Part shown: positions 6,998 through 37,268 of the stretch, one piece after another
How the letters are laid out: every line of letters begins with the position of its first letter
Position numbering within the stretch: the stretch's first letter is position 1
Assembly: GCA_963748625.1 (NCBI GenBank)
Contig: CAVVJT010000007.1
Span: 864,001-928,000 of the forward strand
Direction of reading: 5' to 3'
Length of the DNA: 64,000 nt
Origin: an uncultured Chloroflexia bacterium
Lineage (GTDB): Bacteria > Chloroflexota > Limnocylindria > Limnocylindrales > CSP1-4
Notes under the pieces: generated by a model
What the model was told of the DNA's origin: nothing
Database searches by the model: none
The model's input: only the letters and a program-made list of their open reading frames with translations
Made by a program: the position numbers and the translations under genes

Positions 6998-7227
6998 CCT
7001 GCTCGGCACCGCGCCCCGGTCGGGCTCCGCGGCCTGCTCGGCACCGCGCCCCGGACGGGCTCCGCGGCCTGCTCGGCACCGCGCCCCGGTCGGGCTCCGC
7101 GGCCTGCTCGGCACCGCGCCCCGGTCCGAGTTCGCGGCCTGCTCGGCACCGCGCCCCGGTCCGAGTTCGCGGCCTGCTCGGCATCTCGCCCCGGTCCGAG
7201 TTCGCGGCCTGCTCGGCATCTCGCCCC
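6998..7227. repeat. 35-bp tandem repeat CCTGCTCGGCACCGCGCCCCGGTCGGGCTCCGCGG, about 6.5 copies
   Basis: Units start at 6998, 7033, 7068, 7103, 7138, 7173 and 7208; no spacers; variants are polarised along the array. Confidence 0.9.
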
Positions 7228-7367
7228 ACGTGGGGGCCGTTTCGCGCGATCGCCCGCACGACCTGCGCAGCAAACCTCGACTTCCGTGCCCGGACCACGC
7301 TCAGAACCCGCCGATTCGGCTCCCAGGTGGGGGGCGCGCAGAGATCTGGAGCGCGATGAGGTAGAAG

Positions 7368-7442
7368 TGGTCGGGGCGGTGGGATTCGAACCCACAGCCT
7401 CGTGCTCCCAAAGCACGTGCGCCACCGTTGCGCCACGCCCCG
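7368..7442 (-). tRNA. tRNA-Pro (UGG)
   Basis: CGGGGCG-TG-GCGCAACGGTGGCGC-A-CGTGC-TTTGGGA-GCACG-AGGCT-GTGGG-TTCGAAT-CCCAC-CGCCCCG-A-CCA: complete cloverleaf with encoded CCA. Confidence 0.95.
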
Positions 7443-7560
7443 ACAGGTTTCGTGCTCAGGAAGCGCATGTGCTTCCTGATTTCGGCCTCGCGGCTGGGCC
7501 TACACCGCTCCAATCGCATATGCTGGTCCTGCGGGAACCCATCTAGCGACCGGAGTTGGC

Positions 7561-8511
7561 GTGGTCACATCGCCGTCCAGCGAGCCCCATCATACGGCCC
7601 TCCCGGACCTCGTCCCGTTGCTTGCGTCATGGCGGCGGCATCTCGCCGCCCAACGGATGAGCCCGGCCACCCTCTCCACCTACTCTGCGGCGGTTGGCCA
7701 GCTCGACAAGTTCCTCGAGGCGCAGGCGATGCCGAGAGCGGTCGCTGCGATCCGGCGCGAGCATGTCGAGGCCTTCATCACCCACCTGCTGGGCAAGTTC
7801 AAGCCGAATACGGCCCACAACAGGTTTCGGGGGCTGAAGACGTTCTTCGCGTGGCTGGTGGACGAAGGTGAGATCTCCGATAGCCCCATGGCGCGGATGA
7901 AGCCCCCCAGGCTCACCGAGGAGCCCCCGCCCGTCCTCCGGGAGACGGACTTCACCCGCCTGCTCGAGGTCTGCGAGCGGGACAAGACCTTTGTCGGCCG
8001 CCGCGACGACGCCATCCTCCGCGCGTTCATCGACACCGGGGTCCGGCGCGGCGAGCTGCTCGGGCTGAAGCTCGAGGACGTGGATCTCGATCAGGGCCTC
8101 CTCAGGGTCACCGGCAAGGGGAGCCGCACCAGGATGGTGCCCGTGGGGGCCAAGACGGTGCGCTCGATCGACCGCTACCTGCGCGCTCGCAGCAAGCACC
8201 CCGACGCTGCTCGCCCCGAGCTGTGGCTTGGCCGGCGTGGGGTCCTGCGAGAGTCAGGCTTGGGGGACCTGATCCGCGACCGGGGCAACGAGGCCGGGCT
8301 CACGCTGCGCCTGCATCCGCACCTGTTCCGCCATGCCTACGCCCACTCGATGCTGGCCGCCGGCATCCAGGAGACCGACCTCATGGCGGTCGTCGGCTGG
8401 AAGAGCCGCGAGATGGTGTCCCGCTACGCGGCATCCACCCGGGCCGAGCGGGCCATCTCTGCGGCCCGGAAGCTCAGCCCTGTTGACCGGCTCGACGAGA
8501 CCAGGCGGTGA
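7561..8511 (+). CDS. Tyrosine recombinase/integrase, XerC/D-sized
   Basis: N-terminal SAM-like region (SPATLSTY); catalytic R (DTGVRRGELLGL), K (GKG), HxxR (HLFRH), W (VGW) and Y (SRY). Divergent from tRNA-Pro, 118 bp away. Confidence 0.93.
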   Translation: MVTSPSSEPHHTALPDLVPLLASWRRHLAAQRMSPATLSTYSAAVGQLDKFLEAQAMPRAVAAIRREHVEAFITHLLGKFKPNTAHNRFRGLKTFFAWLVDEGEISDSPMARMKPPRLTEEPPPVLRETDFTRLLEVCERDKTFVGRRDDAILRAFIDTGVRRGELLGLKLEDVDLDQGLLRVTGKGSRTRMVPVGAKTVRSIDRYLRARSKHPDAARPELWLGRRGVLRESGLGDLIRDRGNEAGLTLRLHPHLFRHAYAHSMLAAGIQETDLMAVVGWKSREMVSRYAASTRAERAISAARKLSPVDRLDETRR

Positions 8512-8933
8512 AGGGCGACCTGATCGAGACCGACTGCAGGGCCTGCGGTCAGCTCGTCCACATCGTCGAGGGTGGTGACTGCCCGGCCTGTGGCGCGGGC
8601 CCGGCTGTGCCCTCGGATGAGCGCGTCACCATTGTCAGCGGCCGTGCCGTGAAGGTCCCGAGGGACTTCTTCGGACGACAGGCAATGTGGCTCAGCACCA
8701 GACCCGCACGCCAGACGATCGCCGTCGACAGCAGGCGGCGGGTTCGAGATGTCCCATCTCCTTCCAGGAAGCGGCGACGCGGGCGGATTTCAGGCGATCG
8801 TGCTTGGAAGGCCGTCCTATCGCGCATAGGCCCGCGAACCTCCAACAACCGGCCACAGCCGTTCGTTACGCTACCGGTGGCAGTTGACCGCGCACCCCCG
8901 GTGCGGCGAGGGGCGTCGAGCAGAGGGCAGCCG

Positions 8934-9755
8934 ATGGAGTTTCTGATCCTGACGGTGTTCTGGGGGTGCATCTGGGGCGCCCTATGTGCCTGGTTGGCGG
9001 GCGAGAAGGGCCGCGACGGAACGACCTGGTTCGTCCTAGGCTTCCTGTTCTCTCTTGTCGCCTTGCTCGTGCTCGGCTTCTCACCGTCAGGCGAACCGCC
9101 GCAGACCGTCGCGAGATCAACTGCCACGTTCGGGTCGCTCGACCTGGCACGCACACCACCGCCGGCGAGGGCGAGCACGTCCGGGGCACCAAGAAGCAAT
9201 GCCTCGAAGCGGTGCCCGGACTGCGCCGAGGAGGTGAAGGCCGAAGCCAGGATCTGCCGGTTCTGCCGCTATGAGTTCCCACCGACGCCAGAACCTCAGT
9301 TCGAGCCCGAGTCGGCCGCCGACGAGCAGTTGCTGCCACCAGTCGTGCTGGACCTGGGGCGCTGGGAGATGGCGTCTGCGGACACCGGCTTCCGGATGGG
9401 CGAGACCATCACTCTGTGCCGTGATGGCACGGCCCTCGAGGTCCGCTCCGCGCGGTTTACACGCCGGATCAGCATTCCCGACCGCGACCGCATCCAGGCC
9501 GAGGCCGACCGCCTGCGAGTCTACGATCCGATCTATGCGATGTCGTTCGCACCCTTGGACTCCCAAAGCACGTGCGCCACCGTTGCGCCACGCCCCGACA
9601 GGGAACTAGGCTACACCGCTTGCTCGTTGGGCCACCGGGCAGACGGCGCAGGAGTCACGCCGATACCGCCCCGTCGGCAACCGCCTACGGAGAGCGTCCG
9701 ACGAGAAGCAGCACGACAGCCGGAACGAGGCCGACCGCGACCACCAGCGAGATGA
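8934..9755 (+). CDS. Membrane protein with a zinc ribbon; C-terminus reads through the att core (probably truncated)
   Basis: MEFLILTVFWG...GRDGTTWFVLGFLFS (2 TM) and KRCPDCAEEVKAEARICRFCRYEF. From 9560 the frame translates the tRNA fragment (SQSTCATVAPRP). An in-frame upstream start at 8508 with two CxxC motifs is possible. Confidence 0.6.
   Translation: MEFLILTVFWGCIWGALCAWLAGEKGRDGTTWFVLGFLFSLVALLVLGFSPSGEPPQTVARSTATFGSLDLARTPPPARASTSGAPRSNASKRCPDCAEEVKAEARICRFCRYEFPPTPEPQFEPESAADEQLLPPVVLDLGRWEMASADTGFRMGETITLCRDGTALEVRSARFTRRISIPDRDRIQAEADRLRVYDPIYAMSFAPLDSQSTCATVAPRPDRELGYTACSLGHRADGAGVTPIPPRRQPPTESVRREAARQPERGRPRPPAR
9560..9599 (-). repeat. tRNA-Pro 5'-half copy 1 (att core; no left arm, atypical right flank)
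   Basis: 40/40 identical to 7405-7444. Confidence 0.92.
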
Positions 9756-10539
9756 CGGCCATCGGGCGGAACCAGGTGAGGCAGCCTGCGTGCTCCCTGT
9801 CCACAATCCTGCCTTCCGATCCGTAGAGCCGCCTCAACGCCCGGCTCTCGCGTCGCTGAAGCGCCTCGAAGTCCCGAACGCTGAGACCCAGCGCCAGCGC
9901 TTCGGCCTCAACCCGCAGTTGATCGCCGTCCCGCATCTGGCGCTCGTACTCCTCCATCGGGATCAGATCGCCCCTGGGGCCCCGCGAGCGTTCAAGGTCG
10001 GAGTACCTCCGCACCCGATCGCTCCGCTGCCGCTTGAGGTTCGCCATGTACTCCAGATAGGTGACCCCAGCCGCGCGAGCGGCGGCAGCGTACAGCTCGC
10101 GCCGCTGTGCATCCTGGGCCTCGAGCACCGGCAGCAGCCGGAGGCGAAGGGCGTTGTAGTCCCGCCGGTACTCCGCGACACGAGCCCAGGCCGCGTCCTG
10201 GTAAGCCTCGGTGCCTTCTGCCGCCCGGGCGCGTCGGTGCCACCACTTCGCCTCGTAGTCGAGCCGCCACAGGGCTGCGTCGGCGGTCGCCCAGCTGGGC
10301 TCACGCGTGAGCGTGCCCGAGCAGTCCGGGCATGTCCTGAACGTGCCAGGGCTCCACCGCTCGCAGTCGACGCAGACGGGCATGCCGCGAGTCTTGTGGG
10401 GGTCGATCACCGCAGGCCAGAGCCGATCGTCCCAAGTCGGCGGCATCGGCCGGCGCGGCAACCTCCTGAACACAGGCTCGAAGGGATGCTCCGGGCACCA
10501 GATGCACGTGTCAACGCGGCCGCGGGAGGCGGCGGCCAT
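9685..10539 (-). CDS. Hypothetical protein with a Cys4 zinc finger and C-terminal TM helix (unit 2 cargo)
   Basis: CVDCERW...CPDCSG, a helical middle region and a hydrophobic C-terminus; the only long plausible ORF in the unit. Start uncertain. Confidence 0.5.
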   Translation of the reverse strand: MAAASRGRVDTCIWCPEHPFEPVFRRLPRRPMPPTWDDRLWPAVIDPHKTRGMPVCVDCERWSPGTFRTCPDCSGTLTREPSWATADAALWRLDYEAKWWHRRARAAEGTEAYQDAAWARVAEYRRDYNALRLRLLPVLEAQDAQRRELYAAAARAAGVTYLEYMANLKRQRSDRVRRYSDLERSRGPRGDLIPMEEYERQMRDGDQLRVEAEALALGLSVRDFEALQRRESRALRRLYGSEGRIVDREHAGCLTWFRPMAVISLVVAVGLVPAVVLLLVGRSP

Positions 10540-10582
10540 GGAGCACGTCGCCTAGGAGGTGACCGAGTTGTTGTCCGTGATT

Positions 10583-10744
10583 GTGCTCGCGAAGCCCCTA
10601 ATACTCGGTGCCTACGCCGCTCAGCAGTTCGTGCTTGGAGGGGCCGACCCTACCCCGCATAGGCCCCAGCGGCTCCCAAAGCACGTGCGCCACCGTTGCG
10701 CCACGCCCCGACAGATTCCACGCTCAGGAAGCGCAAGTGCTTCC
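10583..10744. repeat. Full att-like site: left arm, tRNA 5'-half core (10673-10712), right-arm palindrome
   Basis: Core 40/40; arms align with the sites at 11877, 17470 and 20311. Confidence 0.9.
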
Positions 10745-10847
10745 GCACGAGCCCCACAAGGCTAGCCTGCCGCGCGGCGCTCCCGGGTGCTGCAACAGGG
10801 CCGGCTCCTGCGTCGTCATATGCACGCGTCCGCGGAAGGCAGGGGTC

Positions 10848-11849
10848 ATGCGGCGACACCTCCATCTTCTCGTCATGACGGCGATCCTCATCGGATGTGG
10901 ACCGGCTGGCCGGGAGGCGGCGGCTCCTGATCCGTCGATCCTGAACCCCAGGATCGCGTCGCCGGGTATGTTCGGGTCCGGTGGCCAGTCACAGGAGCCC
11001 TCCCTCAGGCCGTCGACCGCGCCGACGACCGGGCCATCGATGGCACCCTCATCATCGCCCGTGACGACACCATGCCCTGCAGTCTCGCCAGCCGCGGTCG
11101 CAGGCACCCGGGTCCGCCCGAAGGTGGACAGCCTCGCCGCCGTGATGACCGACAGCCTTCGCGTGCGGTCACAGCCCGGGCTCGCGGCAGACTCGAAGGT
11201 GCTGCACCGGAGGCTCATGCGCCGCGACGTGGTGTACGTGGTGGCGGGGCCGGTCTCGGCATCGTGCTACGCCTGGTACCAGGTCTACATCCCGTACGAC
11301 CCGGCACACGACCGGGACGAGACGTTCGGATGGGTCGCTGCGGCCAGCATCGAGGGCGAACCGTGGCTCGTCGGCGGTCAGCACCTCTGCCCAGAGCCGC
11401 CCAGGACCGTGTCGGACCTGGCTGACCTGCCGAGCAGCGTTGGCCTGGCGTGCTTCACAGGGCGACGGCTCACCTTCGAGGCATGGCTGGGCACCTACGA
11501 GACGTGCGGGATGTCCGAGGGGTGGACCATCGAGCCTCGCTGGCTTGGCGACACCTGCGCCGGCAACGACTACATGTGGATCGCCGACCGGAGAGCTCGT
11601 AACGCCAGCGACTTCGGCGCGAACGAGCCGGTCCCCGCCGTCATCGCGCCGAAGGTGGACACGTCGCGATTCCACCCGGGCAATCTGCCGAAGGAGTGGA
11701 TCCCAGTCAAGGTGACCGGGATCTTCGACCACAGGGCTGCGAGATCGTGCCACGGCGTCTCCGAAGGGGAGACCGTACCGATCACCGACGACCAAGCCGT
11801 CCTGCAATGTCGCGCCGAGTTCGTGATCACCTCGATCCAGAGGCGATGA
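10848..11849 (+). CDS. Lipoprotein with an SH3-like domain (unit 3 cargo)
   Basis: Lipobox AILIGC, Pro/Ser/Thr linker, TDSLRVRSQPG...GPV...WYQV...GWVAA; paralog of 25297-26262. Confidence 0.75.
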   Translation: MRRHLHLLVMTAILIGCGPAGREAAAPDPSILNPRIASPGMFGSGGQSQEPSLRPSTAPTTGPSMAPSSSPVTTPCPAVSPAAVAGTRVRPKVDSLAAVMTDSLRVRSQPGLAADSKVLHRRLMRRDVVYVVAGPVSASCYAWYQVYIPYDPAHDRDETFGWVAAASIEGEPWLVGGQHLCPEPPRTVSDLADLPSSVGLACFTGRRLTFEAWLGTYETCGMSEGWTIEPRWLGDTCAGNDYMWIADRRARNASDFGANEPVPAVIAPKVDTSRFHPGNLPKEWIPVKVTGIFDHRAARSCHGVSEGETVPITDDQAVLQCRAEFVITSIQRR

Positions 11850-11876
11850 CCGCCGACCAGTAGTCGCCGTCGACCC

Positions 11877-12075
11877 GTGCTCGCGTAGCCCCAAATAGTC
11901 GGTGCCTACACCGCTCGGGGATCCACGCTCAGGACCACCGATCCTACAACGCTTACGCCCCCGGGACCCCCAAAGCGCACGTGCGCCACCGTTGCGCCAC
12001 GCCCCGACTGATTTCGTGCGCAGAAGCGCCTGCGCTTCGCGAGCGGCGCCCACAAGCCTTGCCTGCCGTGCTCCC
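11877..12075. repeat. Full att-like site; core 11967-12008 has a 2-nt insertion and one substitution
   Basis: CCCCCAAAGCGCACGTGCGCCACCGTTGCGCCACGCCCCGAC with both conserved arms. Confidence 0.88.
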
Positions 12076-12312
12076 AGCGCACGATGCGTGCCTGCGGGAG
12101 GGCAGCCTGGGCCCGGCGTGGTCGCCGGTCCGGGGCCCTTCGCCTCTCGACACTCCGGCGCGTCACGATCATCGTTGCCGCCAGCAAGACACATCGATGC
12201 GTGGCCCATACCAAGGGCCGCTGGACCCCGCTGAGCCACCGATCGGCCGCACCGGAAGGGCGTTCCCGGCGACACCGTGTAGCAGATCTGCTCCCGGACG
12301 CATCTATAGGGC

Positions 12313-12852
12313 ATGAACGGTCAGGTGATGGGCGGTCAGAGGGTCGTCACCACGGTCGAGCTCGCGGGGGCCGGCGACGAGGCGGCCTTCGCCCAGTTGG
12401 TGGCGACCTATCACGCCGACATGGCCCGGGTCGCGTTTGTCGCCTGTGGCGACAGGGACCTGGCCGAGGACGCGGTCCAGGCGGCCTGGCTCGTCGCCTG
12501 GCGCAAGCTCCACTCGCTGCGGGATCCAGATCGGGTCCGCCCATGGCTCCTCTCGGTGACCGCCAACGAGGCCCGCCAGATCGTCCGCCGGCGCCGCGGT
12601 CCGGTCATCGAGATCGATGTCGAGGCGGCCGGCGATCCCCGCGGCGACCCGTCGGACGGTATCGAGCGCCTCGACCTCCGCCGGGCGCTGGCGCACCTCT
12701 CGCCCGACGACCGCACCCTGCTCGCCATGCACTACCTCGTCGACCTCAGCTCGGACGAGCTCGGCGCGGCCGTCGGCACGTCGTCGTCGACCGCCCGCAC
12801 GCGGCTCTCACGGGCCGTCGAGCGCCTCAGGAAGGAGCTCCGCGATGGCTGA
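12313..12852 (+). CDS. ECF sigma factor (unit 4 cargo)
   Basis: AGDEAAFAQLV...LAEDAVQAAWLVAWRKL.SLRDP....PWL and region 4 TARTRLSRA. Confidence 0.9.
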   Translation: MNGQVMGGQRVVTTVELAGAGDEAAFAQLVATYHADMARVAFVACGDRDLAEDAVQAAWLVAWRKLHSLRDPDRVRPWLLSVTANEARQIVRRRRGPVIEIDVEAAGDPRGDPSDGIERLDLRRALAHLSPDDRTLLAMHYLVDLSSDELGAAVGTSSSTARTRLSRAVERLRKELRDG

Positions 12853-14650
12853 TCGCGATCGCTTCGAGCTCGACCTCGCCGTGGCTCTCCGCGCCTACGC
12901 GGAGGACGCGCCGACGCAGATCCGTCCGACGGAGCTCGCCCGGCACTTCGCCACTGCGTACCCCCACGGGCGAACCGCGATCGGTCGCTGGGGTCTGGTG
13001 GCCGTCCCGCGCCGCGCCTGGGCCCTGCTCCTGCTAGCGGCCCTGCTCGCCGCGATGCTCGGCGGCATGAATCTCGTCGGCTCGCCGATGCTGCGAAGGC
13101 TCCCGGCCGTCGTGACGCCCGTCGGCCAGGTGTTCGAATGTCCGACCGGATCGACGCCCGACGAGCCCGGCCCGATCGACCAGGCCCGGCCGGCCCATGA
13201 ACCGGCAACACTCTCGGCGATGGCGTTCGACCGCCGGGCCGGCAGACTCGTGACTCTCGCGGACATCCTCACGGGCGACGAGGTCACTGGCACCCAGACG
13301 TGGACGTTCGACGTGTGCACGAACACCTGGACGCGTATGCACCCGGACCGGGAGCCGCCCAGCTCAAGCCATGGGCTCGTCTACGACGTCGACTCCGACG
13401 TGACGATCCTGGTCACCGCCCGGGAGGTGTGGGCCTACGACCTCGGGGCCGACACCTGGACGCTGAAGGGCTCCGTCCCTCCGTTCGACCCGACGGCTTC
13501 CGACCTGGCGGCGTCCTGGGCCTACGACCCGGTCACGGGCCTGGTCGTCACCGCGGCAGCGGAGTTCGCCGCGGGACCCGACTACAGAGCCCGTCCGCCG
13601 CGGCTCTGGACCTACGACGTCGCCACCGACACGTGGACGCCGATCCGCCAGGACAGCCCGCCGGCCTCCTGGGATCGCGGTGTGGGCTTCGCCTACGACG
13701 CGTCAGCGGACAGGTTGATCGCGTTCGGCGTCTATCAATCGACGGGACGCCGGGACGAGACGTGGACCTTCGACCTCCGCACCGGCGCCTGGTCGAGGGC
13801 CGGCGCCGACACGCCGCAGATCGTGGGCGTATGGGGGATGGCAGAGTATCCCCCGGTGATGGTCTACGACGAAGCGGAACAGCGGACCCTCGTCTCCGGC
13901 CATGGCGGCCTGGCCGCTTACGATGCGACCGCGGATCGCTGGGAGAACCTGAACGGGATCGATGCCCGTCAGGGATCGGTCGAGTTCGGCGAGTTGGGCC
14001 CCTCAGCCGAGTGGTCAATGGACATGTACGACTCCGTGAACGGACGGCTCGTCGGCCTCGGCGGCGGCAACGGCATCTGGGCGTTCGACCCGGCGACCGG
14101 CCAGTGGACAGTCCTGCTCGAAGGGCGTGAGGTGGTGAACCCACCGACCGACGACGAGGTGGGTATGGCCGTGTCACCTCGGCCGGGCTGGGCCCCGGAG
14201 CTCGAGGCGCTGCTCCCTTCGAACGTGGACGGCGTGACGTTCACGAAGACGAGCGTGGCCGGCCGGCCTCTCTCGACCCGCCTCGGCAAGGGCGGTTGGG
14301 GGTCGGTGCCGCTCGGGTCCGACGAGCTGAACCCGTTCCTGGGTGACCACGGGAAGGGACTCACCGACCTGAGCATCGCCGTCGCGACCCCGATCGATCG
14401 GTCGCGGGCGGACACCTTCGCCATCGCGTTCCAGGTGAAGGGCGTCGAGGCGACGGAGTTGGCCAGGCTCCTGGCAGACCCCTACACCGCCATCGACGCG
14501 AGGTCCGCCATCGTCGGCGGGAAGGAGGTCCAGAGAATCCGGGAGACCCGGGGGATGGGCTTCGACCTGTACGTCAAGGACGATGTCCTGTTCTACGTCT
14601 TCACCGACGGCACCCCGCTCATCGACGGGATCGTCGCGGCCCTGCCCTGA
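12845..14650 (+). CDS. Putative anti-sigma factor with TM helix and extracellular Kelch-like beta-propeller
   Basis: Overlaps the sigma stop codon; TM WALLLLAALLAAMLGG; repeated TWTFD..T.TW and WAYD...DTW blades. Confidence 0.75.
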   Translation: MADRDRFELDLAVALRAYAEDAPTQIRPTELARHFATAYPHGRTAIGRWGLVAVPRRAWALLLLAALLAAMLGGMNLVGSPMLRRLPAVVTPVGQVFECPTGSTPDEPGPIDQARPAHEPATLSAMAFDRRAGRLVTLADILTGDEVTGTQTWTFDVCTNTWTRMHPDREPPSSSHGLVYDVDSDVTILVTAREVWAYDLGADTWTLKGSVPPFDPTASDLAASWAYDPVTGLVVTAAAEFAAGPDYRARPPRLWTYDVATDTWTPIRQDSPPASWDRGVGFAYDASADRLIAFGVYQSTGRRDETWTFDLRTGAWSRAGADTPQIVGVWGMAEYPPVMVYDEAEQRTLVSGHGGLAAYDATADRWENLNGIDARQGSVEFGELGPSAEWSMDMYDSVNGRLVGLGGGNGIWAFDPATGQWTVLLEGREVVNPPTDDEVGMAVSPRPGWAPELEALLPSNVDGVTFTKTSVAGRPLSTRLGKGGWGSVPLGSDELNPFLGDHGKGLTDLSIAVATPIDRSRADTFAIAFQVKGVEATELARLLADPYTAIDARSAIVGGKEVQRIRETRGMGFDLYVKDDVLFYVFTDGTPLIDGIVAALP

Positions 14651-14700
14651 CGTTGGCGGAACCGCCATCGACCGTGAGAGCGTCCCGAAGGAGAGAAGGG

Positions 14701-14982
14701 ATGAAGGCGCGCAGCTCGCCCGTTCGGCTGCTGGTCGCCCTGGCCTGTCTGGCCCTGCTGGCCGGGTGCGCCGCCCCCGCGAGTCCGACTCCAGCTTCGG
14801 CAACCCCGGATTTCAGCGAGCCTCCCCTCGGCGGCGGTCACGACACCGGCGACTGCCACAACGGCTACCACGGCCCCCACGCCGGCTCCCACACCGAGCG
14901 TCGAAGTGGCGGTTCGTGCTTGGAGGGGCCGACCCTACACCGCATAGGCCCCAGCGGCTCGGGCACCTCGCCTCTGGCCTGA
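14701..14982 (+). pseudogene. Truncated lipoprotein gene fused to an att left-arm half-site
   Basis: Good signal peptide and lipobox (LALLAGC) and SD, but the frame runs into the arm sequence at 14912-14960 and stops. Confidence 0.55.
14912..14960. repeat. Orphan left-arm half-site with no tRNA core
   Basis: 48/49 identical to 10627-10675; identity stops after the first 3 nt (CTC) of the core. Confidence 0.88.
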
Positions 14983-15005
14983 AACACCGGGAGGGCCGTG
15001 GCGTC
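14980..15005 (+). promoter_or_regulatory. ECF-type promoter TGAAAC-N16-CGTC
   Basis: Matches the canonical AAC/CGT ECF promoter pattern, immediately upstream of ECF gene 15014. Confidence 0.6.
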
Positions 15006-15013
15006 TCATCGCC

Positions 15014-15586
15014 GTGGATCCCGTGATCTCTCCCCTCGAGGCGGTCGATGCCGCAGGCGCCCACCGCGCCGCGCAGGCGGATGCGGCCGTCGTGGCCGCG
15101 TGGACCGCCCACCACGCGGAGGTCTTCGCGTTTCTCGTCCGGACCACCCGCAGCCCGGAAGCTGCCGAGGATCTCCTCCAGGAGGCGTACCTGCGCCTGA
15201 CCACCGAGATCCGGGCCGGCCGGGCGCCGGACAACACCCGGGCCTGGCTCTACCGCGTGAGCGCCAACCTCGCGGTCAGCCGCGGGCGGCGCCTCTCGGC
15301 CGCCTTCCGGGGGATCGTCAGGATCCGCAGCACCTCCGCGCCACTCACGACGACCTTCACCCCGGAGGCGAGCTACCTCGGTCGCGAGGGCCGGGCCGGC
15401 CTCCTCGCGGCCCTCGCGGACCTGGCGCCCGATGCCCGGGCCGCGCTCCTGCTGTCGGCCGAGGGCTTCACCGGTGCCGAGATCGCCGCCGCGATCGGGC
15501 GCTCCGATGCCGCAACCCGGACCCTGCTCTGCCGGACCCGCGTCCAGGTCCGTGGCCGGCTCGAAGGGGCGGAGGCCGTCCGATGA
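15014..15586 (+). CDS. ECF sigma factor
   Basis: AAEDLLQEAYLRL...RAWLYRVSANLAVS and EIAAAIGRSDAATRTLLCRTR. Confidence 0.9.
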   Translation: MDPVISPLEAVDAAGAHRAAQADAAVVAAWTAHHAEVFAFLVRTTRSPEAAEDLLQEAYLRLTTEIRAGRAPDNTRAWLYRVSANLAVSRGRRLSAAFRGIVRIRSTSAPLTTTFTPEASYLGREGRAGLLAALADLAPDARAALLLSAEGFTGAEIAAAIGRSDAATRTLLCRTRVQVRGRLEGAEAVR

Positions 15587-17424
15587 CGTCCCACGACACG
15601 TTCCTGCAGCTCGCCGCCATCGCGGTCGACTACCCGCTCTCGTCCGGCGATCGCGGCCGCCTCGAGGCGCACCTCGCCTCGTGCCCGGCCTGCGCCCGCT
15701 CGGCCCACGGCTTCCGGGCCGACGCCATCGCCTTCGGGGACCTGCCGCCCGCCGTCCTGCCGGAGCGCCGCGGGGCCGAGATCCTCGCCGCGGCCATGCA
15801 CCCGGCGACCGTCCGGCACCCGCTCCGGCTGGTGCTCGTCGCCGCCCTGCTTGCCCTGCTGGCCCTCGGCTCGCTCGTCGCCGGGGCGGAGCTGCTACGG
15901 CGGAGCCAGGACGACGACCTCTCGGTCGTGCCCCCGGTACCGACGGAGACGCCCGTCGCGACGGAGACGCCCGGCCCGGTGCCGTCGGCCTCGGTCATGC
16001 CGTCGGTCTCCCTCGCGCCGTCGGCCCCGCCGGTGAACAGGCCCGTGGTCACTCCGGCCTCGTTGCCGCTGCCATCGGGCTCCGTCTCGCTCGCACCGGC
16101 CGCGGCCGGCGGCGTCTGGGTCCTTGTGAACGACCTGCCCAACCTCTCCAGTGAGTCGGGCCGAGCGGTCCTCGCGCTTCTCACCAAGGACGGCGAGCCC
16201 GCCCCGGGCTGGCCGCAGGAGATCCAGGATGTGGACTGCAGCATGTGGGCCGGCAGCGAGTGGGCCGGCATCCCGGCATCGCCGGCGTCGCAGCTGCCGG
16301 TTGTCGCCCCGGACGGCAGCGTCCGCCTCCTGTGCTGGACGGCACCCCCGGATGCGACATCAGCCGTGTTCGCGCTCTCGTTCGACGCCGCCGGCGCAGC
16401 GTCCCCCGGATGGCCGGTCATGCTGCCGTCTGACCCGGTCGACGCCCGGCTGATCGACGACACGCTGGTCATTGCGACATCTTCGCTGACCACCGACGCT
16501 GAGGGGAACGTGCTGGAGGTCGAGTATCGGATCCTGCGGATCAGCGCGGCCGGGCAGCTCGAGCAGGGTCAGGCGGTTGCGCCGGTCGATCTGGGGAACT
16601 ACGCGCCGAACCTGAGGATAGATGGGGCGCCGAACCTGGCCGCCGATGGGGTCGCGTTCCTCAGATGGGTCCGTGACGAAGGCCCCGAACCGGCAACCGA
16701 CATCCTGGCGTTTGGGTTTGACGGCGCACTGCCGGGCTGGCCGGTCTCGGTGCCCGGAATCGTCTCGGCCGTCGTCACCGGGCCGGATGGGCGCTACTAC
16801 GCGACTGCCTCGGCGAGGGCCAAGGATGCGGACGCGCTCGCCCCAAGCCAGAAGCTCGTCGCGCTCACCCCCAGCGGGACGCTGTCCGTCGGGTTGGATC
16901 TGCCCGTGGCTGGAATCTCCGCGGCCACGTTTGCGGGCGGGTACGCACCGCTCAGGCCCACGCTCGGGCCCGGCGGATCCGCGTGGGTCCCGGGCGTCAA
17001 CACCCGCGACAACGTCGTCGTCCACGCGCTCGGACCGGACGGCATGGTCCGCGACGGGTGGCCGTGGCGGGCCGGTGCGCCTATCGAGGAGCAGGGCGAG
17101 TGCGGGCAGGGCGAGACAGGATGCGGCGTGTGGCGGACCGTGCCAGCCCTCGGACCCGGTGAGGTGCTCCTGGTCCTCCTGGGGCCGGCTGATCGGACGA
17201 GCGGCGGGCAGGTCGTCGCGGTCGGGCCGGATGGGCGGGTCGTTGACGGCTGGCCGGTGACGCTCACGAACCCGGCCGGGCGCTGGGATGTGGTGGTGGC
17301 CGGCACCGACGGGACGGTCTACGCGACGGCGATCGAGTCCGGCGCCCGCACGTCGACGACCACGCTTCTCGCGATCGCGCCGGACAGCGAGGTGGTCTGG
17401 CGGTCGACGCTCGTCGGCAAGTGA
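15583..17424 (+). CDS. Zinc-binding (HxxxCxxC) anti-sigma factor with TM helix and extracellular repeat domain
   Basis: ATGA overlap with the sigma gene; HLASCPAC; TM; repeated (P)GWP motifs of a propeller-like domain. Confidence 0.82.
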   Translation: MTSHDTFLQLAAIAVDYPLSSGDRGRLEAHLASCPACARSAHGFRADAIAFGDLPPAVLPERRGAEILAAAMHPATVRHPLRLVLVAALLALLALGSLVAGAELLRRSQDDDLSVVPPVPTETPVATETPGPVPSASVMPSVSLAPSAPPVNRPVVTPASLPLPSGSVSLAPAAAGGVWVLVNDLPNLSSESGRAVLALLTKDGEPAPGWPQEIQDVDCSMWAGSEWAGIPASPASQLPVVAPDGSVRLLCWTAPPDATSAVFALSFDAAGAASPGWPVMLPSDPVDARLIDDTLVIATSSLTTDAEGNVLEVEYRILRISAAGQLEQGQAVAPVDLGNYAPNLRIDGAPNLAADGVAFLRWVRDEGPEPATDILAFGFDGALPGWPVSVPGIVSAVVTGPDGRYYATASARAKDADALAPSQKLVALTPSGTLSVGLDLPVAGISAATFAGGYAPLRPTLGPGGSAWVPGVNTRDNVVVHALGPDGMVRDGWPWRAGAPIEEQGECGQGETGCGVWRTVPALGPGEVLLVLLGPADRTSGGQVVAVGPDGRVVDGWPVTLTNPAGRWDVVVAGTDGTVYATAIESGARTSTTTLLAIAPDSEVVWRSTLVGK

Positions 17425-17469
17425 CGCCAAGCCCACCCGTCAGCGCTGCCGGCAACACGGCTGTCTGTC

Positions 17470-17631
17470 GTGCTCCCGTAGCCCCGAATAGTCGGTGCCT
17501 ACGCCGCTCGGCTCGCCACGCTCATGACCCCCGACCCTGCACCGCATAGGCCCCGGGGACTCCCAAAGCACGTGCGCCACCGTTGCGCCACGCCCCGACT
17601 GATTTCGTGCTCAGGAAGCGCATGTGCTTCC
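17470..17631. repeat. Full att-like site; core 17560-17599
   Basis: Core 40/40; right arm TTTCGTGCTCAGGAAGCGCATGTGCTTCC is identical to the leader of the intact tRNA. Confidence 0.92.
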
Positions 17632-17865
17632 GGCTCGAGTCCGATGTGCCGAAGCTACAGCGCTTCCTCGTCGGCGTGCGCCGGCCGATCTGGCCGTGCC
17701 GGAGCGCGCAGCGCCATTCCATGAGCCCGAGTGCTCTCGCGCAACACCTGGATGCGGCCGATCGTTTCAGCAACGGCGGCGAGACTGGAGTCGAAGCCCG
17801 CGAGCCGGGCTCGGCCGCAGGGCGACCGGTCTCAGCCGGCAACCCAGCGTCCCGAGGAGTGCGGG

Positions 17866-20196
17866 ATGAACGGCATGGCCAGCCGGTGGTGCATCAGGAC
17901 TTCGGCCTGGTGGTTGTTCAGCCTGATCGCGGCCCTGCTCGCGGCTGGCTGTGCCGACGGAACCCCGGTGAAGCCCACTCCGCCCGTCGAGCCACCGGCC
18001 ACGATCGAGCCGGCAGTGACATCGGGGCTGCCCGCGCCAACGCCGACCAGCTCGCCGGCCCCCACACCGAAGCCCGGCTGGAACCAGGCCGCGCCCATGC
18101 CGCGCGAGCGAACCGGGTTTGATGCGGTGCTCATGGGCGACGGCACCGTCCTTGTGGTCGACGACGATCCGTCCAGCGACCTTGCTGCGCCAGGGAGCGA
18201 GCTCGTGGACGTGTACGACCCTGCGACTGACACCTGGCGCCCGGCCGAGAGCCTGAACAAGCCGCGAGCTGGCGCGGCCACGGTGGTACGCCCGGATGGG
18301 ACGGCGCTCGTGATTGGGGGGACCAACAGCGATGGGCAGGCATTCTCCAGCACGAAGGTCCTCGCCACGACGACGACCAGCTGGGAGGCGGGGCCACTGA
18401 TGAAGGTCGCGAGGATGTCGCCCGAGGCCGTGGTCCTGGGCAATGGTCACGTCCTCGTCGTGGACCAGACGGACAGCCGCCCGGTCACGACCACGAGCGA
18501 GCTCCTCGGCCCCCGCGGGAAGGCATGGACCACCCGCCGGACGCTGTCCGGCCATGTCGTCGCCGTCGACGCCCTCGTGCGGGCGGGCAACCACGGTGCG
18601 CTGGCCCTCGGCTGGGAGCGCGATGCCCATGTTGCTGACTCGATGCAGCCGGCGGCCCGCTACTACGACGCGTTCTTCGACACCTGGAAGACGGTCCCCG
18701 TTCCGAAGCTGCAGGTGCAGCCGGCGCTCGTCACGCTCCCCGACGGCAGGGTCCTCGCCGTCGGCGGCAACGGCGGCGGCGAGCTGGTGGGTCACCCGAA
18801 CACCCTGGCCACCGTCAGGGTGTTCGACCCAGCCCGGGCGAAATGGACGAATCTGGCGCCGATGGCGGAACCGCGCGAGAGCGCGCAGGTGGCGATGCTC
18901 GCCGACGGACGCGTGCTCGTCGCGGGCGGCATGCAGCGGACCACAGACGGCGGGCCGCCGCCGATCCTCGCATCATCGGAGATCTACGATCCAGGCACGG
19001 ACAGCTGGTCAACGGGCCCCGCCCTGCTCGAGCCGCGCGCCGGTGGCGCTGCGGTCACCCTTCGAGACGCGACGGTCCTCGTGCTCGGCGGGCAGGGTCT
19101 TATGGGCAGCCTCGTCACGGTCGAGCGCTTGTGGCTGGACGCCTCCACTTCCGCAGGACGGGAGCTCAACCCGACGCTCCTGCACTGGGACGCGATCGGG
19201 CAGCTTCCCTCGGAGGATGAAGGGCAGCTCATCGGCTTCGACAAAGGCTATGTCTACGTGGGCTACAGGGTGTGGTTCTCACCGGACGGCATGAGCTGGG
19301 AGGTGATCGAGCCACAACGCGCGATCTGTGACGACCCGGACTCGACCGCTCTCATCGCCAGCATCGTGTGGGCAGGAGCAACCGACGGCCACGAGGTCAT
19401 GCTCGTCGGATACCAGCTCGACGACTGCGTAGGGGGTTCACCGACGCCAGCCTCGTGGATCACGTCCGATGGCGTCACGTGGGAGCAGTCCCCGGCGGTG
19501 GAGCTGTCGAGGGGCTCTGGCGACATGCGCGAGGTGTGGGCAGTGCCGGACGGCTGGGAGGCGAGTGTCTACCTGCACAAGACCGACGACTTCGCTCGCT
19601 GGATCTCGATCGACGGCCTGACGTGGCAGAGCGCCCGGGCCCTGCCCGTCGATCTCAGCGCTGTGGCGCCTGACGGCACCCGAGTCGGCATCCGCCATCG
19701 CAAGACCGGAAGGAAGGAGACCCTCGTCGCGTCGACCGATGGACAGGCGTGGCGGGTCATCGACGCGCCCGTGCGCGGCGGGGTGGGTGCCGTGGTGCCA
19801 CCGGCGGCCGCCGGAGACCCGTGGATCGTGGTCAGCGAGACGGAGACCCAGTTGACGTTCGCCGCCTCGCGCGACCTTGTCCACTGGTCCTCGGTCTCCA
19901 CTCCGTACGCGTTCATCGACGGCATCACGCAGGCCCCACGTGGAGTCTTCCTGCTGTCGAGCGAGCCGTGCTGGGAAGGCCTTGGCGCGGGCCCTGCGCC
20001 GAGCGCGGGGCCTCCAGACTGCCCAGCGGACGGCGAGGTCGTGATCGACCTGCACATGAGCGCCGACGGTCTGCGCTGGGTGGATGTCGTCACCCCGGGC
20101 CCGCTCGTGGCAATCGCCGATGGGCCCGCTGGGACGCTGGCGGTCGAGTGGAACGACGGCAGCGGCGCTACGCGCGTCTGGCGCCTGGATCAGTAG
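17866..20196 (+). CDS. Kelch-repeat lipoprotein with a second Asp-box-like domain (unit 5 cargo)
   Basis: GAGGAG SD, lipobox LLAAGC, Kelch blades (LADGRVLVAGG...SEIYDP.TDSW), then S.DG..W repeats. Confidence 0.82.
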   Translation: MNGMASRWCIRTSAWWLFSLIAALLAAGCADGTPVKPTPPVEPPATIEPAVTSGLPAPTPTSSPAPTPKPGWNQAAPMPRERTGFDAVLMGDGTVLVVDDDPSSDLAAPGSELVDVYDPATDTWRPAESLNKPRAGAATVVRPDGTALVIGGTNSDGQAFSSTKVLATTTTSWEAGPLMKVARMSPEAVVLGNGHVLVVDQTDSRPVTTTSELLGPRGKAWTTRRTLSGHVVAVDALVRAGNHGALALGWERDAHVADSMQPAARYYDAFFDTWKTVPVPKLQVQPALVTLPDGRVLAVGGNGGGELVGHPNTLATVRVFDPARAKWTNLAPMAEPRESAQVAMLADGRVLVAGGMQRTTDGGPPPILASSEIYDPGTDSWSTGPALLEPRAGGAAVTLRDATVLVLGGQGLMGSLVTVERLWLDASTSAGRELNPTLLHWDAIGQLPSEDEGQLIGFDKGYVYVGYRVWFSPDGMSWEVIEPQRAICDDPDSTALIASIVWAGATDGHEVMLVGYQLDDCVGGSPTPASWITSDGVTWEQSPAVELSRGSGDMREVWAVPDGWEASVYLHKTDDFARWISIDGLTWQSARALPVDLSAVAPDGTRVGIRHRKTGRKETLVASTDGQAWRVIDAPVRGGVGAVVPPAAAGDPWIVVSETETQLTFAASRDLVHWSSVSTPYAFIDGITQAPRGVFLLSSEPCWEGLGAGPAPSAGPPDCPADGEVVIDLHMSADGLRWVDVVTPGPLVAIADGPAGTLAVEWNDGSGATRVWRLDQ

Positions 20197-20310
20197 GGAC
20201 GGTGCAGCTCGGTGTTGCCGACGGTGATCCTCGTCGGCGCAGCCTGCTTCGTGGCCACGACAGCCCTCGCGTCGAGAACGACCTCCTGGGGAGTGGACCA
20301 CGCGCCCGGC

Positions 20311-20520
20311 CCGCTCGCGTAGCCCTCAATGATCGGCGCCTTCACCGCTCGGCGGTTCGTGCCTGAAGGGGCCGAGGGTAGACCGCTCAGCTCCGCGAGG
20401 CTCCCAACGCACGTGCGCCACCGTTGCGCCACGCCCCGACAGGTTTCACGCTCAGGAAGCGCATGTGCTTCGTGAGCGACGACTCGAAGCCTTGCCTGCC
20501 GTGCTCCCGTCGCACGATCC
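20311..20520. repeat. Full att-like site; core 20401-20440 (last clear copy)
   Basis: Core 39/40; the right arm extends to GCCTTGCCTGCCGTGCTCCC, shared with the 11877 site. Confidence 0.9.
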
Positions 20521-20552
20521 GGATGCCGTGCCGCGGCCGCGCGGCCCTTCTT

Positions 20553-21545
20553 TCAGAACGCCCGGTTGCGCCGGGCCGCCAAGAGGATTGCCTCGGCCTC
20601 CTGGTAGGTGCGATTGAGCTGGGCCGTCTCGATGAACGTCATGAACACGCGATCGGCTGGGATGAGCTGGCCGATCAGCACCGACACGACCGTGGCGGGA
20701 CCTCGATCGGCGATGCTCTCGGCCACGGCCCGATCGAACGTCGCTGACACGAAGGTCCGCGGTGGCGGGACGCGAAGCGGGCCCTCGCTGGTCAGACCCC
20801 GATACAACCAGAGCCGGTCCTGCCCAGCGGCTCGAAGCATCGCTCGCACGAAGCCAAGGCGGGCGACGACATGATCGGCGCGCCGCTCCTCGCTCCACGC
20901 ACCGGCGAAGAGGTCCGGGTCCCGCACGACCTTGCCGCGGTACGGGACAAGCCCCAGCCGGGCGATCACGATCTCGTGGCCCTTGACCATCTCGCCCGAT
21001 GACGGATTGCTGACATACCGCTCGGCGAACATCCTCTCCATGTCGGTCATCGCACGGGCGGCCATGTGGTCGGCGAGGAGGCGCTGGACGAAGGCGTCGC
21101 CGACGCGTCCGTTGACGTCGATGCGGAGCGGTGCGTCGCCAAGGATGACCGCAGCTGCGCGTTCCTCCTCCCGAAGACGGGCCTGCGTCCGGGCCCGAGC
21201 CCGGGGGTCCACCGGGATGGCGAGTGAACGGCTGAACCGGTCGACCGCCGCGGCGAAAGCGGTCAGCGTCGCGGCATCTGCGCGCCGGGCATCAAGCTCG
21301 AATTGGAAATGGCAGACCCGCTCCGCCTCGATCAGCCAGCGAGCGCCGCGATCCTCGAACGCCAGCACCTCGACCTCGAAGGTGCCCAGATCCACGTCGA
21401 CTGCCCGGATCGCCACGGGAGTTCGCCGGGTGTCGAGCATGCGGCCCGCATTGCCGGGCACGAGGTGGTGGAGCTCACCCAGCACGAAGCTGCTATCGGG
21501 CGCCTGATCGGGAGTGGACTCGTGGATCGGCTTGGATGTGCCCAC
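20553..21545 (-). CDS. Hypothetical protein with a putative C-terminal R-S-E ADP-ribosyltransferase-like domain
   Basis: LWLYRG, FVSATF and YQEAEAILL motifs in order. GTG at 21545 follows GGAG; start uncertain. Confidence 0.55.
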   Translation of the reverse strand: MGTSKPIHESTPDQAPDSSFVLGELHHLVPGNAGRMLDTRRTPVAIRAVDVDLGTFEVEVLAFEDRGARWLIEAERVCHFQFELDARRADAATLTAFAAAVDRFSRSLAIPVDPRARARTQARLREEERAAAVILGDAPLRIDVNGRVGDAFVQRLLADHMAARAMTDMERMFAERYVSNPSSGEMVKGHEIVIARLGLVPYRGKVVRDPDLFAGAWSEERRADHVVARLGFVRAMLRAAGQDRLWLYRGLTSEGPLRVPPPRTFVSATFDRAVAESIADRGPATVVSVLIGQLIPADRVFMTFIETAQLNRTYQEAEAILLAARRNRAF

Positions 21546-22035
21546 CAGCTGGCTCCCTGCATTCGGTCGTGCCTTCCCGCCCAGACCGCGCCAAGACGAT
21601 ACACGTGCCGGGGCGAGTCTCGATGTGGCTGCAATGGTGACTCGACCGCGGGACGCACCAGCCCGCCCAGCACTGGACCAAGAGCCCAAACCGCTTGCCG
21701 TGGGGCCGGCACCGAGCCCACGATGGGTCGCCCCGCGCAGTGGGAGCTGTGCGCCACGGGCCGATGAGCGTCACCCGGAAGCGCACCGTCCCGTCGGGCT
21801 GGATCGCCAGGGTGGTCAGCGAGGCCCTCCTCCGCAGTGCAGAGGGAGTGGAGGGGGTCTCGCGGGCGCGGGTTTGAGCCGCTCCCAGTCCGTTTGCACC
21901 TTGGCCGGACAAGGGCGAGTCACCTAAGGTGACGATGGGAGGGATGCATCGGCTACCGGCATGCGGACATCCCGCCCGAACGCGCGGAGGCACCCGAGGC
22001 AGCCCCGCGCCCGTGCGTCCCGAGGGGAGTCGAGG

Positions 22036-27622: not shown

Positions 27623-27754
27623 GCTGCCCCGTCCTGCCGGTCGGCACCAGTCCGCCGGCGACTGTCCGTTGCTCTCCATACGCCCCGTGAGACGGGTGGC
27701 CGGGGACCGATGTTGCCCGGGGTCGAGAAGTCGGCGGGGTCGACCGGGTGGCAC

Positions 27755-28345
27755 CTACGCTGCCAGTGGACGCTCGGGGCCCCCGCCCGCGACGAGGCGG
27801 GACCCCCCGAGGGTCTCGCGCATCGTGTGACGCGTGCGGCACAGGAGTGCCCGGCATGCGAGTTGCGATCGTCCCATCGTCGCGGCGATCTCGCGTCCGC
27901 TATAGCCCTCCGCAGCCATCAGGATGCTCATCCGGGCGGCGCCTGATAGCGCAGCCAGGGCCTGGCGCAGCTCGGGGCTGAGCGACGAGGCCTCGGCTTC
28001 CATCTCAGCCGAGGTCGAGCCGGCCTCCCAGGCCGGCGAGGCGCGCTCGTCGGACGCGAACCGGACCGGACGGCGCAACTCGCTGACCACCAGGTTGTGG
28101 ACGACGCGATAGAGCCACGGACGGACGGCGAGGGGCGCTCGGCCCGCCGACGTCTCGCGGACCAGCCGCGCGAACGCCTCGTGGACCACGTCCTCCGGGT
28201 TCACGTGCCCACCGAAGCGGTGCGTGACGTACGCCTCGAGCTCGTGTGCGTACGCCACATAGACCTGGCCGATCCACACGCACTCAGCGGCTGGCGCGGC
28301 TGACCATGATGTCGCCGCCGTTTCGAATGCCTGACTCGCCGTCAT
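27755..28345 (-). CDS. ECF sigma factor (no coupled downstream anti-sigma)
   Basis: EDVVHEAFARL...RPWLYRVVHNLVVS and GYSGREIAATMGRS...RALLCRTR. Confidence 0.85.
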   Translation of the reverse strand: MTASQAFETAATSWSAAPAAECVWIGQVYVAYAHELEAYVTHRFGGHVNPEDVVHEAFARLVRETSAGRAPLAVRPWLYRVVHNLVVSELRRPVRFASDERASPAWEAGSTSAEMEAEASSLSPELRQALAALSGAARMSILMAAEGYSGREIAATMGRSQLACRALLCRTRHTMRETLGGSRLVAGGGPERPLAA

Positions 28346-34601: not shown

Positions 34602-34624
34602 GCGGCGGCGCCGCCACCGGCTCG

Positions 34625-36753: not shown

Positions 36754-37268
36754 GGTCGTCCTCCAGGCTCCTGGCGGCACGATGTCGTGCAGCGGATCAC
36801 ATGTCGAACTGTCGTCCCTGACGTCCGCCACGGTCACTGTGGGTCCGGGTAACTGGAAAGGGAAAGAGGCGTCAGGCCCATGGGAGACGCCGGGCAGCGT
36901 GCCCCTGTTGCAGCGGTCGCCGGCTCCGACAGGGTTCCCGGCGCCACGCCGGCGAGCCAACAATGCGCCACGCCCCAACGGGGGCGCCTAGGCCCTACAC
37001 CAAGCTCCGACTCGGGTGGGAGTCACCCAACGCCCCGACGTGCACGACCCGTGCACCCAACCCGGGGTAGACGACACGTGCCCCGCACGAGGGACCCGCT
37101 CCTGACTCGGGGTGGAGTCAAGGGCCCGGGACCGGCATGTGGCTGACGCGGCGCGCAGTCCCCGATGGTCGCCAAGCCGCTCGAGGAGGCCGTGGGCACA
37201 GACCTGCGCATCCGGCTTCCCCGCTGAGCTGGCCCCGGAGTGACGAGGGCCGGCAGGCCGAGCCTTCG

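Follow-up and report, generated by a model that had tools for sequence, protein, structure and literature searches.

The 64,000-nucleotide (nt) stretch of DNA analysed here in full (the window; contig CAVVJT010000007.1, positions 864,001 to 928,000, from an uncultured bacterium of the Limnocylindria, Chloroflexota) carries a tRNA-Pro gene with a tyrosine recombinase gene beside it and a row of repeats that each contain part of the tRNA, which a first-pass annotation had taken for recombination sites whose motif spacing is under selection. The intact tRNA-Pro(TGG) gene lies on the minus strand at 7368..7442 (called by ARAGORN; Rfam tRNA model, 68.4 bits) and is the single copy for its anticodon among the 59 tRNA calls in its own genome. 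The core of the repeats is its 5' half (7405-7442): a 26-mer taken from this half occurs exactly six times as against zero times in 100 shuffles, and the five extra core copies all keep the orientation of the tRNA-Pro gene and all lie toward its 5' side. Immediately upstream of the intact tRNA is what we call its right arm (7443..7535, plus strand), with a TTCGTGCTC-like H box at 7449-7457, a near-palindrome at 7458-7477 and a CCTACACCGC-like D box at 7499-7508, and between this D box and the recombinase gene is a promoter-like stretch; the same right-arm layout recurs between tRNA and integrase genes in other metagenome-assembled genomes (MAGs). The recombinase (hereafter the integrase; 316 amino acids (aa), 7561..8511, plus strand, recognised by its Pfam domains) begins 119 bp from the tRNA-Pro 5' end, and its stop codon is overlapped by an open reading frame (ORF) at 8508..8726 on the same strand whose translation is a 72-aa zinc-ribbon protein.

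Four of the displaced cores stand within full sites, which have a left arm of ~90 bp, a core of ~43 bp (from the anticodon loop to the tRNA 5' end plus a few bases) and a right arm of ~70-100 bp, for a total of ~190 bp. They are all written on the plus strand, at 10583..10790 (site 1; profile E = 2e-50), 11877..12085 (site 2, whose core has a 2-nt insertion; E = 6e-43), 17470..17670 (site 3, our reference copy) and 20311..20520 (site 4, beyond which the array has no other well-kept site; E = 1e-48). The fifth displaced core, also on the plus strand at 9560..9619, has a short right arm with a D box at 9610, lacks the H box and palindrome, and has no left arm. When the site profile was run against the window's own genome it gave seven matches at E ≤ 1.5e-7, all at the array locus, and the remaining matches had E ≥ 0.77. 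Two weak plus-strand candidates may be a decayed left-arm fragment (8790..8845; 9.4 bits, genome-wide E = 1.3) and a very decayed core with a short right arm (36940..37010; 3.6 bits).

The first-pass annotation had described a hexamer that recurs in four registers of each full site (H1 to H4) and a decamer that occurs twice in each left arm (D1 and D2). All 18 hexamers and all 10 decamers it had placed are the given word or a near variant of it, and the gaps it gave are correct: 48, 39 and 50 bp between hexamers, 52 bp in place of 50 at the site with the 2-nt insertion, and 38 bp between decamers. Its third register is, on inspection, not a copy of the hexamer, since the full sites read CGGCTC, GGACCC, GGACTC and AGGCTC there and GTGCTC is present only in the intact tRNA; this register is the junction of left arm and tRNA copy, where similarity to the tRNA starts. 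Nor are the hexamers the best-kept part of the left arm, which is a 22 bp block (17488-17509 and its homologues) that includes the first decamer. The fixed offsets had been offered as an observation in their own right, but the four window sites are ungapped homologous repeats over ~200 bp (their left arms are 58-83% identical without gaps, where unrelated 90-mers of the window have a mean identity of 29% and a maximum of 46%), and copies of this kind have equal offsets as a matter of course. Finally, the hexamer had been equated with the anticodon-stem word of the tRNA; because the same box is present at tRNA-Gly, tRNA-Val and tRNA-Thr, whose stems differ, it is not a copy of the target's anticodon stem. 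H1, the tRNA anticodon arm and H4 do share a longer word, namely the hexamer followed by three variable bases and AAGC, as read from the alignments.

The integrase is of a simple type. Pfam places a SAM-like domain at residues 20-102 and a Phage_integrase domain at 125-294, so that the core-binding domain begins at residue 20 of 316 and there is no N-terminal arm-binding domain, nor any further domain; a lambda-type complex integrase was therefore rejected. It scores far below the equivalog cut-offs of XerC (158.5 vs 335 bits) and XerD (150.5 vs 330 bits), on which grounds an Xer/dif system was rejected as well, and among solved structures XerD and XerA come closest to it. The true Xer pair of the genome is probably to be found in two stronger PF00589 matches at other places. 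Orthologues that are 66-83% identical are equally adjacent to tRNA-Pro in genomes G022, G005, G013, G009 and G034; in G034 the unit with the integrase is 4.9 kb long, carries ABC-transporter cargo and is closed by a full left arm and core. Relatives in other MAGs (47-76% identity, from Chloroflexota and Actinomycetota) lie less than 300 bp from a tRNA gene at 21 of 30 loci, nine on the 5' side of the tRNA and 12 on the 3' side. Family members on the 3' side, from other MAGs and from the genus, are found at tRNA-Val(TAC), Gly(TCC), Thr(CGT) and Arg(CCT) (among loci L085-L099 and L120), and a D-box-like word recurs in their intergenic regions; a single integrase family thus uses both ends of tRNA genes. 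An apparent in-frame stop in paralogous integrases was dismissed, as the "1 stop inside" was each gene's own stop codon. The 72-aa zinc-ribbon protein may be a candidate partner or accessory factor; a counterpart in the same place, immediately behind the integrase, is present in only one other locus, L080 (50% identity over 68 aa).

The same sites were sought in 61 genomes, the window's own included. Thirty-two copies outside tRNA genes were gathered and three were set aside (window 9574, which has no arms; window 36954, which is barely recognisable; and G033:C8, which has no right arm and a divergent left end), leaving 29 full sites from 13 genomes. Within the genus, G027 has 11 matches over 28 kb, G028 six and G015 five, and in the sister family only the tRNA part was matched, apart from two short left-arm matches that fail the profile (E = 0.64, or no match). 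A search across the lineage had been suggested by the first-pass annotation; the 29 sites keep the left-arm gaps at their modes in 25 to 27 cases: H1-H2 is 48 bp in 26, H2-H3 39 bp in 27, H3-H4 50 bp in 25 and D1-D2 38 bp in 25. The right-arm spacer from the H box to the distal D box has a mode of 47 bp in 17 of the 29 and ranges from 44 to 52 bp, so the left-arm gaps are better kept than this spacer (Fisher p = 0.005 and 0.015). Among 26 natural sites (of 31 references), 161 pairs of 12-mers match at 10 or more of 12 positions where shuffled controls predict 49, and such pairs recur at the offsets D1-D3, D1-D2, D2-D3, H2-H4 and H1-H4. Parsimony on the site tree assigns ~297 substitution events and ~6 indel events, each of one base, to the 83 columns of the left arm, and 282 substitutions and 10 indels to the 35 columns of the distal right arm; counted per column, indels are four times rarer in the left arm than in the right-arm spacer (p = 0.0065). 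The left arm is conserved jointly in length and sequence. Overall the sites are 76% identical per column, and the two deepest site types diverge strongly in sequence and have arms of equal length.

Spacing could also be compared at other target genes. In G006, G092, G013, G026 and G061 an integrase paralogue (51% identity) stands on the 5' side of tRNA-Gly(TCC), and in G006, G061 and G092 a displaced 39-44-nt tRNA-Gly 5' half is found 7-14 kb away. The arms of these loci cannot be aligned with the Pro arms. The H box nevertheless starts at position 6 past the tRNA 5' end in 5/5 loci, a D box is at +48 in 5/5, and a D box lies 21, 21 and 20 bp to the left of the identity block in 3/3, a distance equal to that of D2 in the Pro sites; either box is expected by chance at ~0.06 per 130 nt. 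In a survey of 44 tRNA rows the H box was present on the integrase side in 30 (two of the 14 without it are 3'-side loci, for which the side is irrelevant), and in these the H box stood 44 bp from the loop-side edge of the identity block in 20 cases, 45 bp in seven, 43 bp in two and 55 bp in one (L087), although the 30 loci are kin and represent roughly seven independent lineages. Across the loci the length of the tRNA half ranges from 38 to 41 nt and that of the spacer from 4 to 7 nt (once 15), one being longer where the other is shorter, and their sum stays steady at 44-45 bp. This comparison is the best evidence on the matter, and it supports the idea that spacing relative to the presumed crossover region is constrained.

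Several other identities for the repeats were considered and rejected. The H box is not a general upstream element of tRNA genes, as it is found upstream of only 1 of the 59. Rfam matched nothing in the sites except the tRNA, and consensus folds of both strands gave no supported arm helix, with compensatory pairs outside the tRNA D-arm numbering zero on the plus strand and one on the minus; structured RNA and a folded single-strand site were accordingly rejected, and the sites are neither attC-like folded sites nor structured RNA. A small conserved ORF across the site is contradicted by stops kept in all three forward frames and by 1-nt indels in some copies, and the sites are non-coding. A dispersed repeat or miniature inverted-repeat transposable element was discarded because the profile matches in the genome are confined to the array locus.

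On the strength of the homology of the sites, their arrangement as an array, the tRNA copies, the adjacency of the integrase, and the way in which the boxes recur and are spaced in different genomes and beside different target tRNAs, all of which are directly observed, we consider it likely that the repeats are the attachment-site junctions of a tandem accretion array, in which cassettes have been stacked beside tRNA-Pro by a site-specific recombinase. The original claim that these are recombination sites is upheld to this extent: core copies, profile and neighbouring integrase all point to attachment-site sequences of a tRNA-targeting recombination system. From these observations we infer a crossover at the anticodon loop, the binding of protein to the boxes and the order of insertion, as follows. 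Small integrative elements would target the anticodon loop of the single-copy tRNA-Pro(TGG) gene, each having an attachment site (attP) made of the ~90 bp left arm, the tRNA 5' half and the right arm, which is the upstream region, and the crossover would occur at the anticodon loop, that is, at the left edge of tRNA identity. Upon integration the tRNA would receive the element's 5' half and right arm, and the previous 5' half would be displaced outward with the newcomer's left arm now before it, so that every internal junction would read left arm, core, right arm. Because tRNA-Pro(TGG) is a single copy, the right arm would have to supply its promoter. The simple Xer-like integrase beside the tRNA would act as the recombinase. 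The units between the full sites of the window have no integrase gene (a 284-aa minus-strand ORF is also among these recombinase-less units) and only the tRNA-adjacent unit has one; the integrase-less units resemble cis-mobilizable or decayed elements.

The H and D boxes are most likely cis elements of the attP of this integrase family that bind the integrase or a partner protein. They stand at fixed distances from the presumed crossover region, and those of the right arm probably coincide in part with promoter signals. They are read as extra sites for integrase domains or a partner because the integrase has no arm-binding domain of its own, and since the distal D box lies inside the promoter-like stretch before the integrase gene, a double role in recombination and as promoter is likely for it. 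Selection most likely acted on the mobile form, and the chromosomal copies may be inert.

The comparison of arrays is consistent with this model. Left arms are inherited with the cargo to their left: between the window and G027, a gene end matches at 148/170 positions, the spacer after it at 40/45 and the left arm at 74/88. The distal right arm follows the cargo to its right, matching at 19/35 where the right cargo differs, and where three sites have one right cargo in common (96% identity), their right arms agree from the D box on. Displaced cores are identical to the resident tRNA in 15 of the 29 sites, and all four in G028 carry that genome's tRNA variant, while terminal or orphan copies are decayed or truncated. 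This fits an array that grows at the tRNA end and decays at the far end, as has been proposed for other tRNA islands (bioRxiv 10.1101/2020.12.28.424599). The arrays of G025 and G027 are collinear for 6 kb and begin to diverge within a cassette rather than at a site. Mapping of the crossover by segment linkage was uninformative, as the correlations mainly reflected how deeply the two site types are separated.

Two observations on G027 concern how sites and cassettes are rearranged. One cassette start (783 bp, 96% identical) occurs twice in the G027:C3 array (L060:16250-16600 and L061:9060-9410) and again in G022 (L075), each time preceded by another left arm and in one case by another proximal right arm as well, from which it follows that cassettes are duplicated or reshuffled and that sites are mosaic. 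At L061:8383-8489 in the same contig a left arm is fused to a right arm with the entire tRNA core missing, and the junction falls at the two hexamer registers that are 50 bp apart, plus two extra bases. This fusion could have come from recombination between registers or from a microhomology deletion; a precise H3 x H4 recombination was not accepted, being unproven in view of the two extra bases at the junction.

Several points weigh against this reconstruction. The largest arrays, in G027, G025 and G015, are in genomes (93%, 90% and 71% complete, respectively) that have no match to this integrase at E ≤ 1e-20; the PF00589 places of G027, G028, G015 and G025 are on contigs other than the array contigs. 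The integrase-adjacent right arms of G009 and G034 have no H box, and in the window itself the unit that carries the integrase stops at a core which lacks a left arm and cuts an ORF. There was no evidence of excision in 17 public runs, which contain at most 0.11 of the sampled words and whose contigs come from relatives; the joints in those contigs link repeat copies and have no bearing for or against excision. In the orthologous cassette pair of the window and G027 the left arm shows no better conservation than the adjoining non-coding spacer. The spacing argument is also affected. The first-pass annotation had the left arms accumulating substitutions with no net indels, which holds for the four window sites and not for the 29, where the ~6 one-nucleotide events are found in the left arm. 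Indels per substitution are 0.020 in the left arm and 0.035 in the right-arm spacer, a difference that is not significant (p = 0.20), so that a special length constraint "despite divergence" does not follow from the 29 sites alone; what remains of the constraint originally claimed is that the gaps are kept in 13 genomes and in the paralogous tRNA-Gly system.

The genes carried by the array are as follows. Between sites 1 and 2 is a predicted lipoprotein gene with no family match (10848..11849, plus strand). Site 2 is followed on the plus strand by an extracytoplasmic function (ECF) sigma factor gene (12313-12852; Pfam), a Kelch-repeat protein gene (ORF 12617-14650, whose start is not fixed; Pfam) and an anti-sigma-like protein gene with a zf-HC2 domain (14998..17424), and a second Kelch-repeat protein gene (17731..20196, plus strand; Pfam) lies between sites 3 and 4. 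Between the first Kelch gene and the anti-sigma gene is a remnant consisting of the proximal half of a left arm with no core (14909..14962, plus strand; profile E = 1.5e-7). It stops at the junction register and is the mark of a lost site; G028 has a full site before the homologous gene. ARAGORN also called an 89-nt tRNA-Arg(CCT) at 17143-17231 inside the anti-sigma-like ORF; Rfam gave nothing there at E ≤ 1, and the call is probably false. Nearer the tRNA, the ORF at 8934-9755, which encodes a zinc-ribbon membrane protein (UPF0547-like), runs through the core copy at 9560, and it seems that this gene was cut or fused by the attachment-site core. Just past the array is the gene of a 1043-aa RCC1-repeat protein (21961-25092), and well beyond the last good site, at 26500-42600, are genes homologous to cassettes of G028, G025 and G027 (65-82% aa identity). 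The weak match at 36940-37010 may be an older boundary of the island, which in that case would have extended to 37 kb or further in the past.

Cargo was surveyed further through 50 long ORFs in the arrays of G027, G028, G015 and G025. Four of these encode ECF sigma factors, and the relatives also carry zf-HC2 anti-sigma proteins, Kelch and PD40 propellers, cyclases, hydrolases and a Crp-type regulator. Among the 25 families listed of the 33 matched there was no recombinase, transposase, phage or conjugation family. Cassette genes are found in both orientations. Beta-propeller proteins (Kelch, PD40, RCC1) are frequent in the cargo of the array, where they are paired with ECF sigma/anti-sigma genes.

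Could the conserved blocks be mainly transcription signals instead? The right arm would then be a promoter and leader for tRNA-Pro and for the integrase gene or first cargo gene, the left arm would be an insulator or terminator against read-through, and the spacing would be promoter geometry. Such a role has some appeal, in that each insertion at a single-copy tRNA must bring a promoter, and, as read from the sequences, the distal D box lies family-wide between -35-like and -10-like hexamers before the integrase gene; moreover, the short type of right arm puts a D box ~10 nt from the tRNA 5' end, and the alignments show left-arm stops kept in all three forward frames. However, a consensus scan of 7000-21000 gave zero promoter-like sites, the usual -10 boxes of tRNA genes are unlike the D box, whose reverse word is upstream of only 2 of the 59 tRNAs, and neither strand of the left arm forms a hairpin that is conserved. 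A promoter role would also leave unexplained why D boxes stand 20-21 bp from the crossover edge in two systems. We therefore regard this explanation as unlikely, though it is the strongest of the alternatives. Many tRNA genes of the window's own genome (G000) have a clear -10-like box (of the GCTACACT, GGTAGACT and GCTAGAAT types) that ends ~8-12 nt before the mature 5' end, and these boxes make a useful promoter model for the lineage.

An explanation by shared ancestry alone would hold that the sites are fossils of one duplicated sequence, that length is not under selection and that the motifs are just patches that change more slowly. The four window sites, being plain homologues, would be expected under it, as would the left-arm indel/substitution ratio that is not significantly low, the decay of distal and orphan copies, and the persistence of arrays in genomes without an integrase match. 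It fares less well with ~297 substitutions as against ~6 one-nucleotide indels in 83 columns and with the significant deficit of indels per column, or with the deepest site types, which differ in sequence and have the same arm length. Above all, it does not account for the same boxes at the same offsets at tRNA-Gly, where the arms cannot be aligned, or for the compensation between tRNA half and spacer, and we find it improbable. That some other recombinase, either host XerC/XerD or an unrecognised enzyme, builds the arrays and that the window integrase is a passenger at the same tRNA would suit the integrase-less arrays of G027, G025 and G015, the XerC/D-like genes in every genome searched and the missing left arm at the distal end of the window's integrase unit, but it is very improbable given the full left arm and core that end the G034 integrase unit, the boxed right arm that is the conserved tRNA-integrase intergenic region of the whole integrase family, and the lack of any other recombinase family among the 25 listed of 33 matched by the array ORFs.

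How does a tandem accretion array with these properties compare with known systems? It is like the Islander-type islands in tRNA and tmRNA genes in having an intact tRNA gene (tDNA), displaced fragments of that gene in the same orientation and on the side to be expected, and an integrase that belongs to the island. The Islander signature is thus present in the displaced tDNA and absent as regards an integrase in each unit. According to the Islander report (PMC4383910), 2083 of 3919 islands are in the 'A' class with an anticodon-loop crossover, the class into which the crossover proposed here would fall, attP is ~250 bp, the 5' fragment is used in 159 of the 3919, and arrays of three or more, for which an integrase was required per unit, were found four times. 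Here, in contrast, the 5' fragment is used and most units have no integrase.

Cis-mobilizable accretion arrays, such as those of Streptococcus ICESt1/CIME and the ssrA islands of Dehalococcoides, are similar in that a single target gene is flanked by units bounded by att sites, many of which have no recombination module. In the Dehalococcoides study (PMC3146451), 15 islands lack an integration module and a 15-bp motif adjoins the 20-bp repeat; Dehalococcoides, which also belongs to the Chloroflexota, thus likewise has extra conserved bases beside its repeat. In those islands the enzymes are serine recombinases and the target is the ssrA 3' end, whereas here we find a simple tyrosine recombinase, the tRNA 5' half and a boxed site of ~190 bp. 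The hallmark of such arrays, att-flanked units without recombination genes next to an integrase-bearing element, is found in the window, and a tandem accretion array with cis-mobilizable units is the best match, with mobilisation by the neighbouring integrase being putative. The tycheposons of Prochlorococcus are alike in their repeated integration at tRNA genes, including tRNA-Pro(tgg), and in the partial tRNAs between units. They are defined by an integrase and replication genes and have adaptive cargo, as stated in the same bioRxiv study (10.1101/2020.12.28.424599). No replication module (primase, helicase or polymerase) was found in the window cassettes or among the 25 families listed of 33 from the four relatives.

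Integron arrays resemble this locus in having one integrase at a fixed site and a row of short integrase-less cassettes, and the integron attI site has extra direct-repeat binding sites for the integrase on one side. The integrase here is not IntI, however (48.1 bits against TIGR02249, whose cut-off is 265), the sites are conserved in sequence and not in fold, and the genes point both ways; with that score and no conserved folded sites, an integron proper was rejected. Simple integrases that have no arm-binding domain, such as Brujita Int, are alike in consisting of core-binding and catalytic domains only, and the solved Gp33 chain 5vfz matches the window integrase at E = 1.2e-10. The Brujita attP is small and simple, whereas here the arms on either side of the core are long and conserved and carry boxes at set spacings. 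It is rare for a simple recombinase to drive a mobile element: the counts are 27 phages vs 410 and 12 integrative and conjugative elements vs 211 (PMC8138268).

The unusual points are therefore the use of the tRNA 5' half, the long arrays, and a simple recombinase together with long conserved arms carrying spaced boxes. We found no description of this system in the literature, a search that did not extend to the supplements of the cited papers. The locus is a known kind of genomic island with unusual details; what the first-pass annotation observed is largely right and its reading is supported in part, any present-day activity of the sites being putative.

More tentatively, and as a possibility we rate well below the accretion array itself, the Limnocylindria may have an integron-like chromosomal cassette platform, in which one arm-less Xer-like integrase would move integrase-less, self-promoted cassettes by means of double-stranded sites of ~190 bp, whose boxes, 44-45 and 20-21 bp from the crossover, would assemble integrase protomers or a partner and so replace the arm-binding domain.

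The locus shows uncultured soil and sediment Limnocylindria collecting accessory genes at one tRNA gene with a minimal recombinase, and the genes collected are mostly ECF sigma/anti-sigma pairs and secreted beta-propeller proteins. The arm-binding domain has been argued to be the key step in the evolution of mobile-element integrases (PMC8138268). If the boxes do bind protein, a simple tyrosine recombinase would here build a directional, higher-order attachment site without that domain, and with an integrase gene of ~950 bp and a site of ~190 bp the system would be a compact candidate integration tool.

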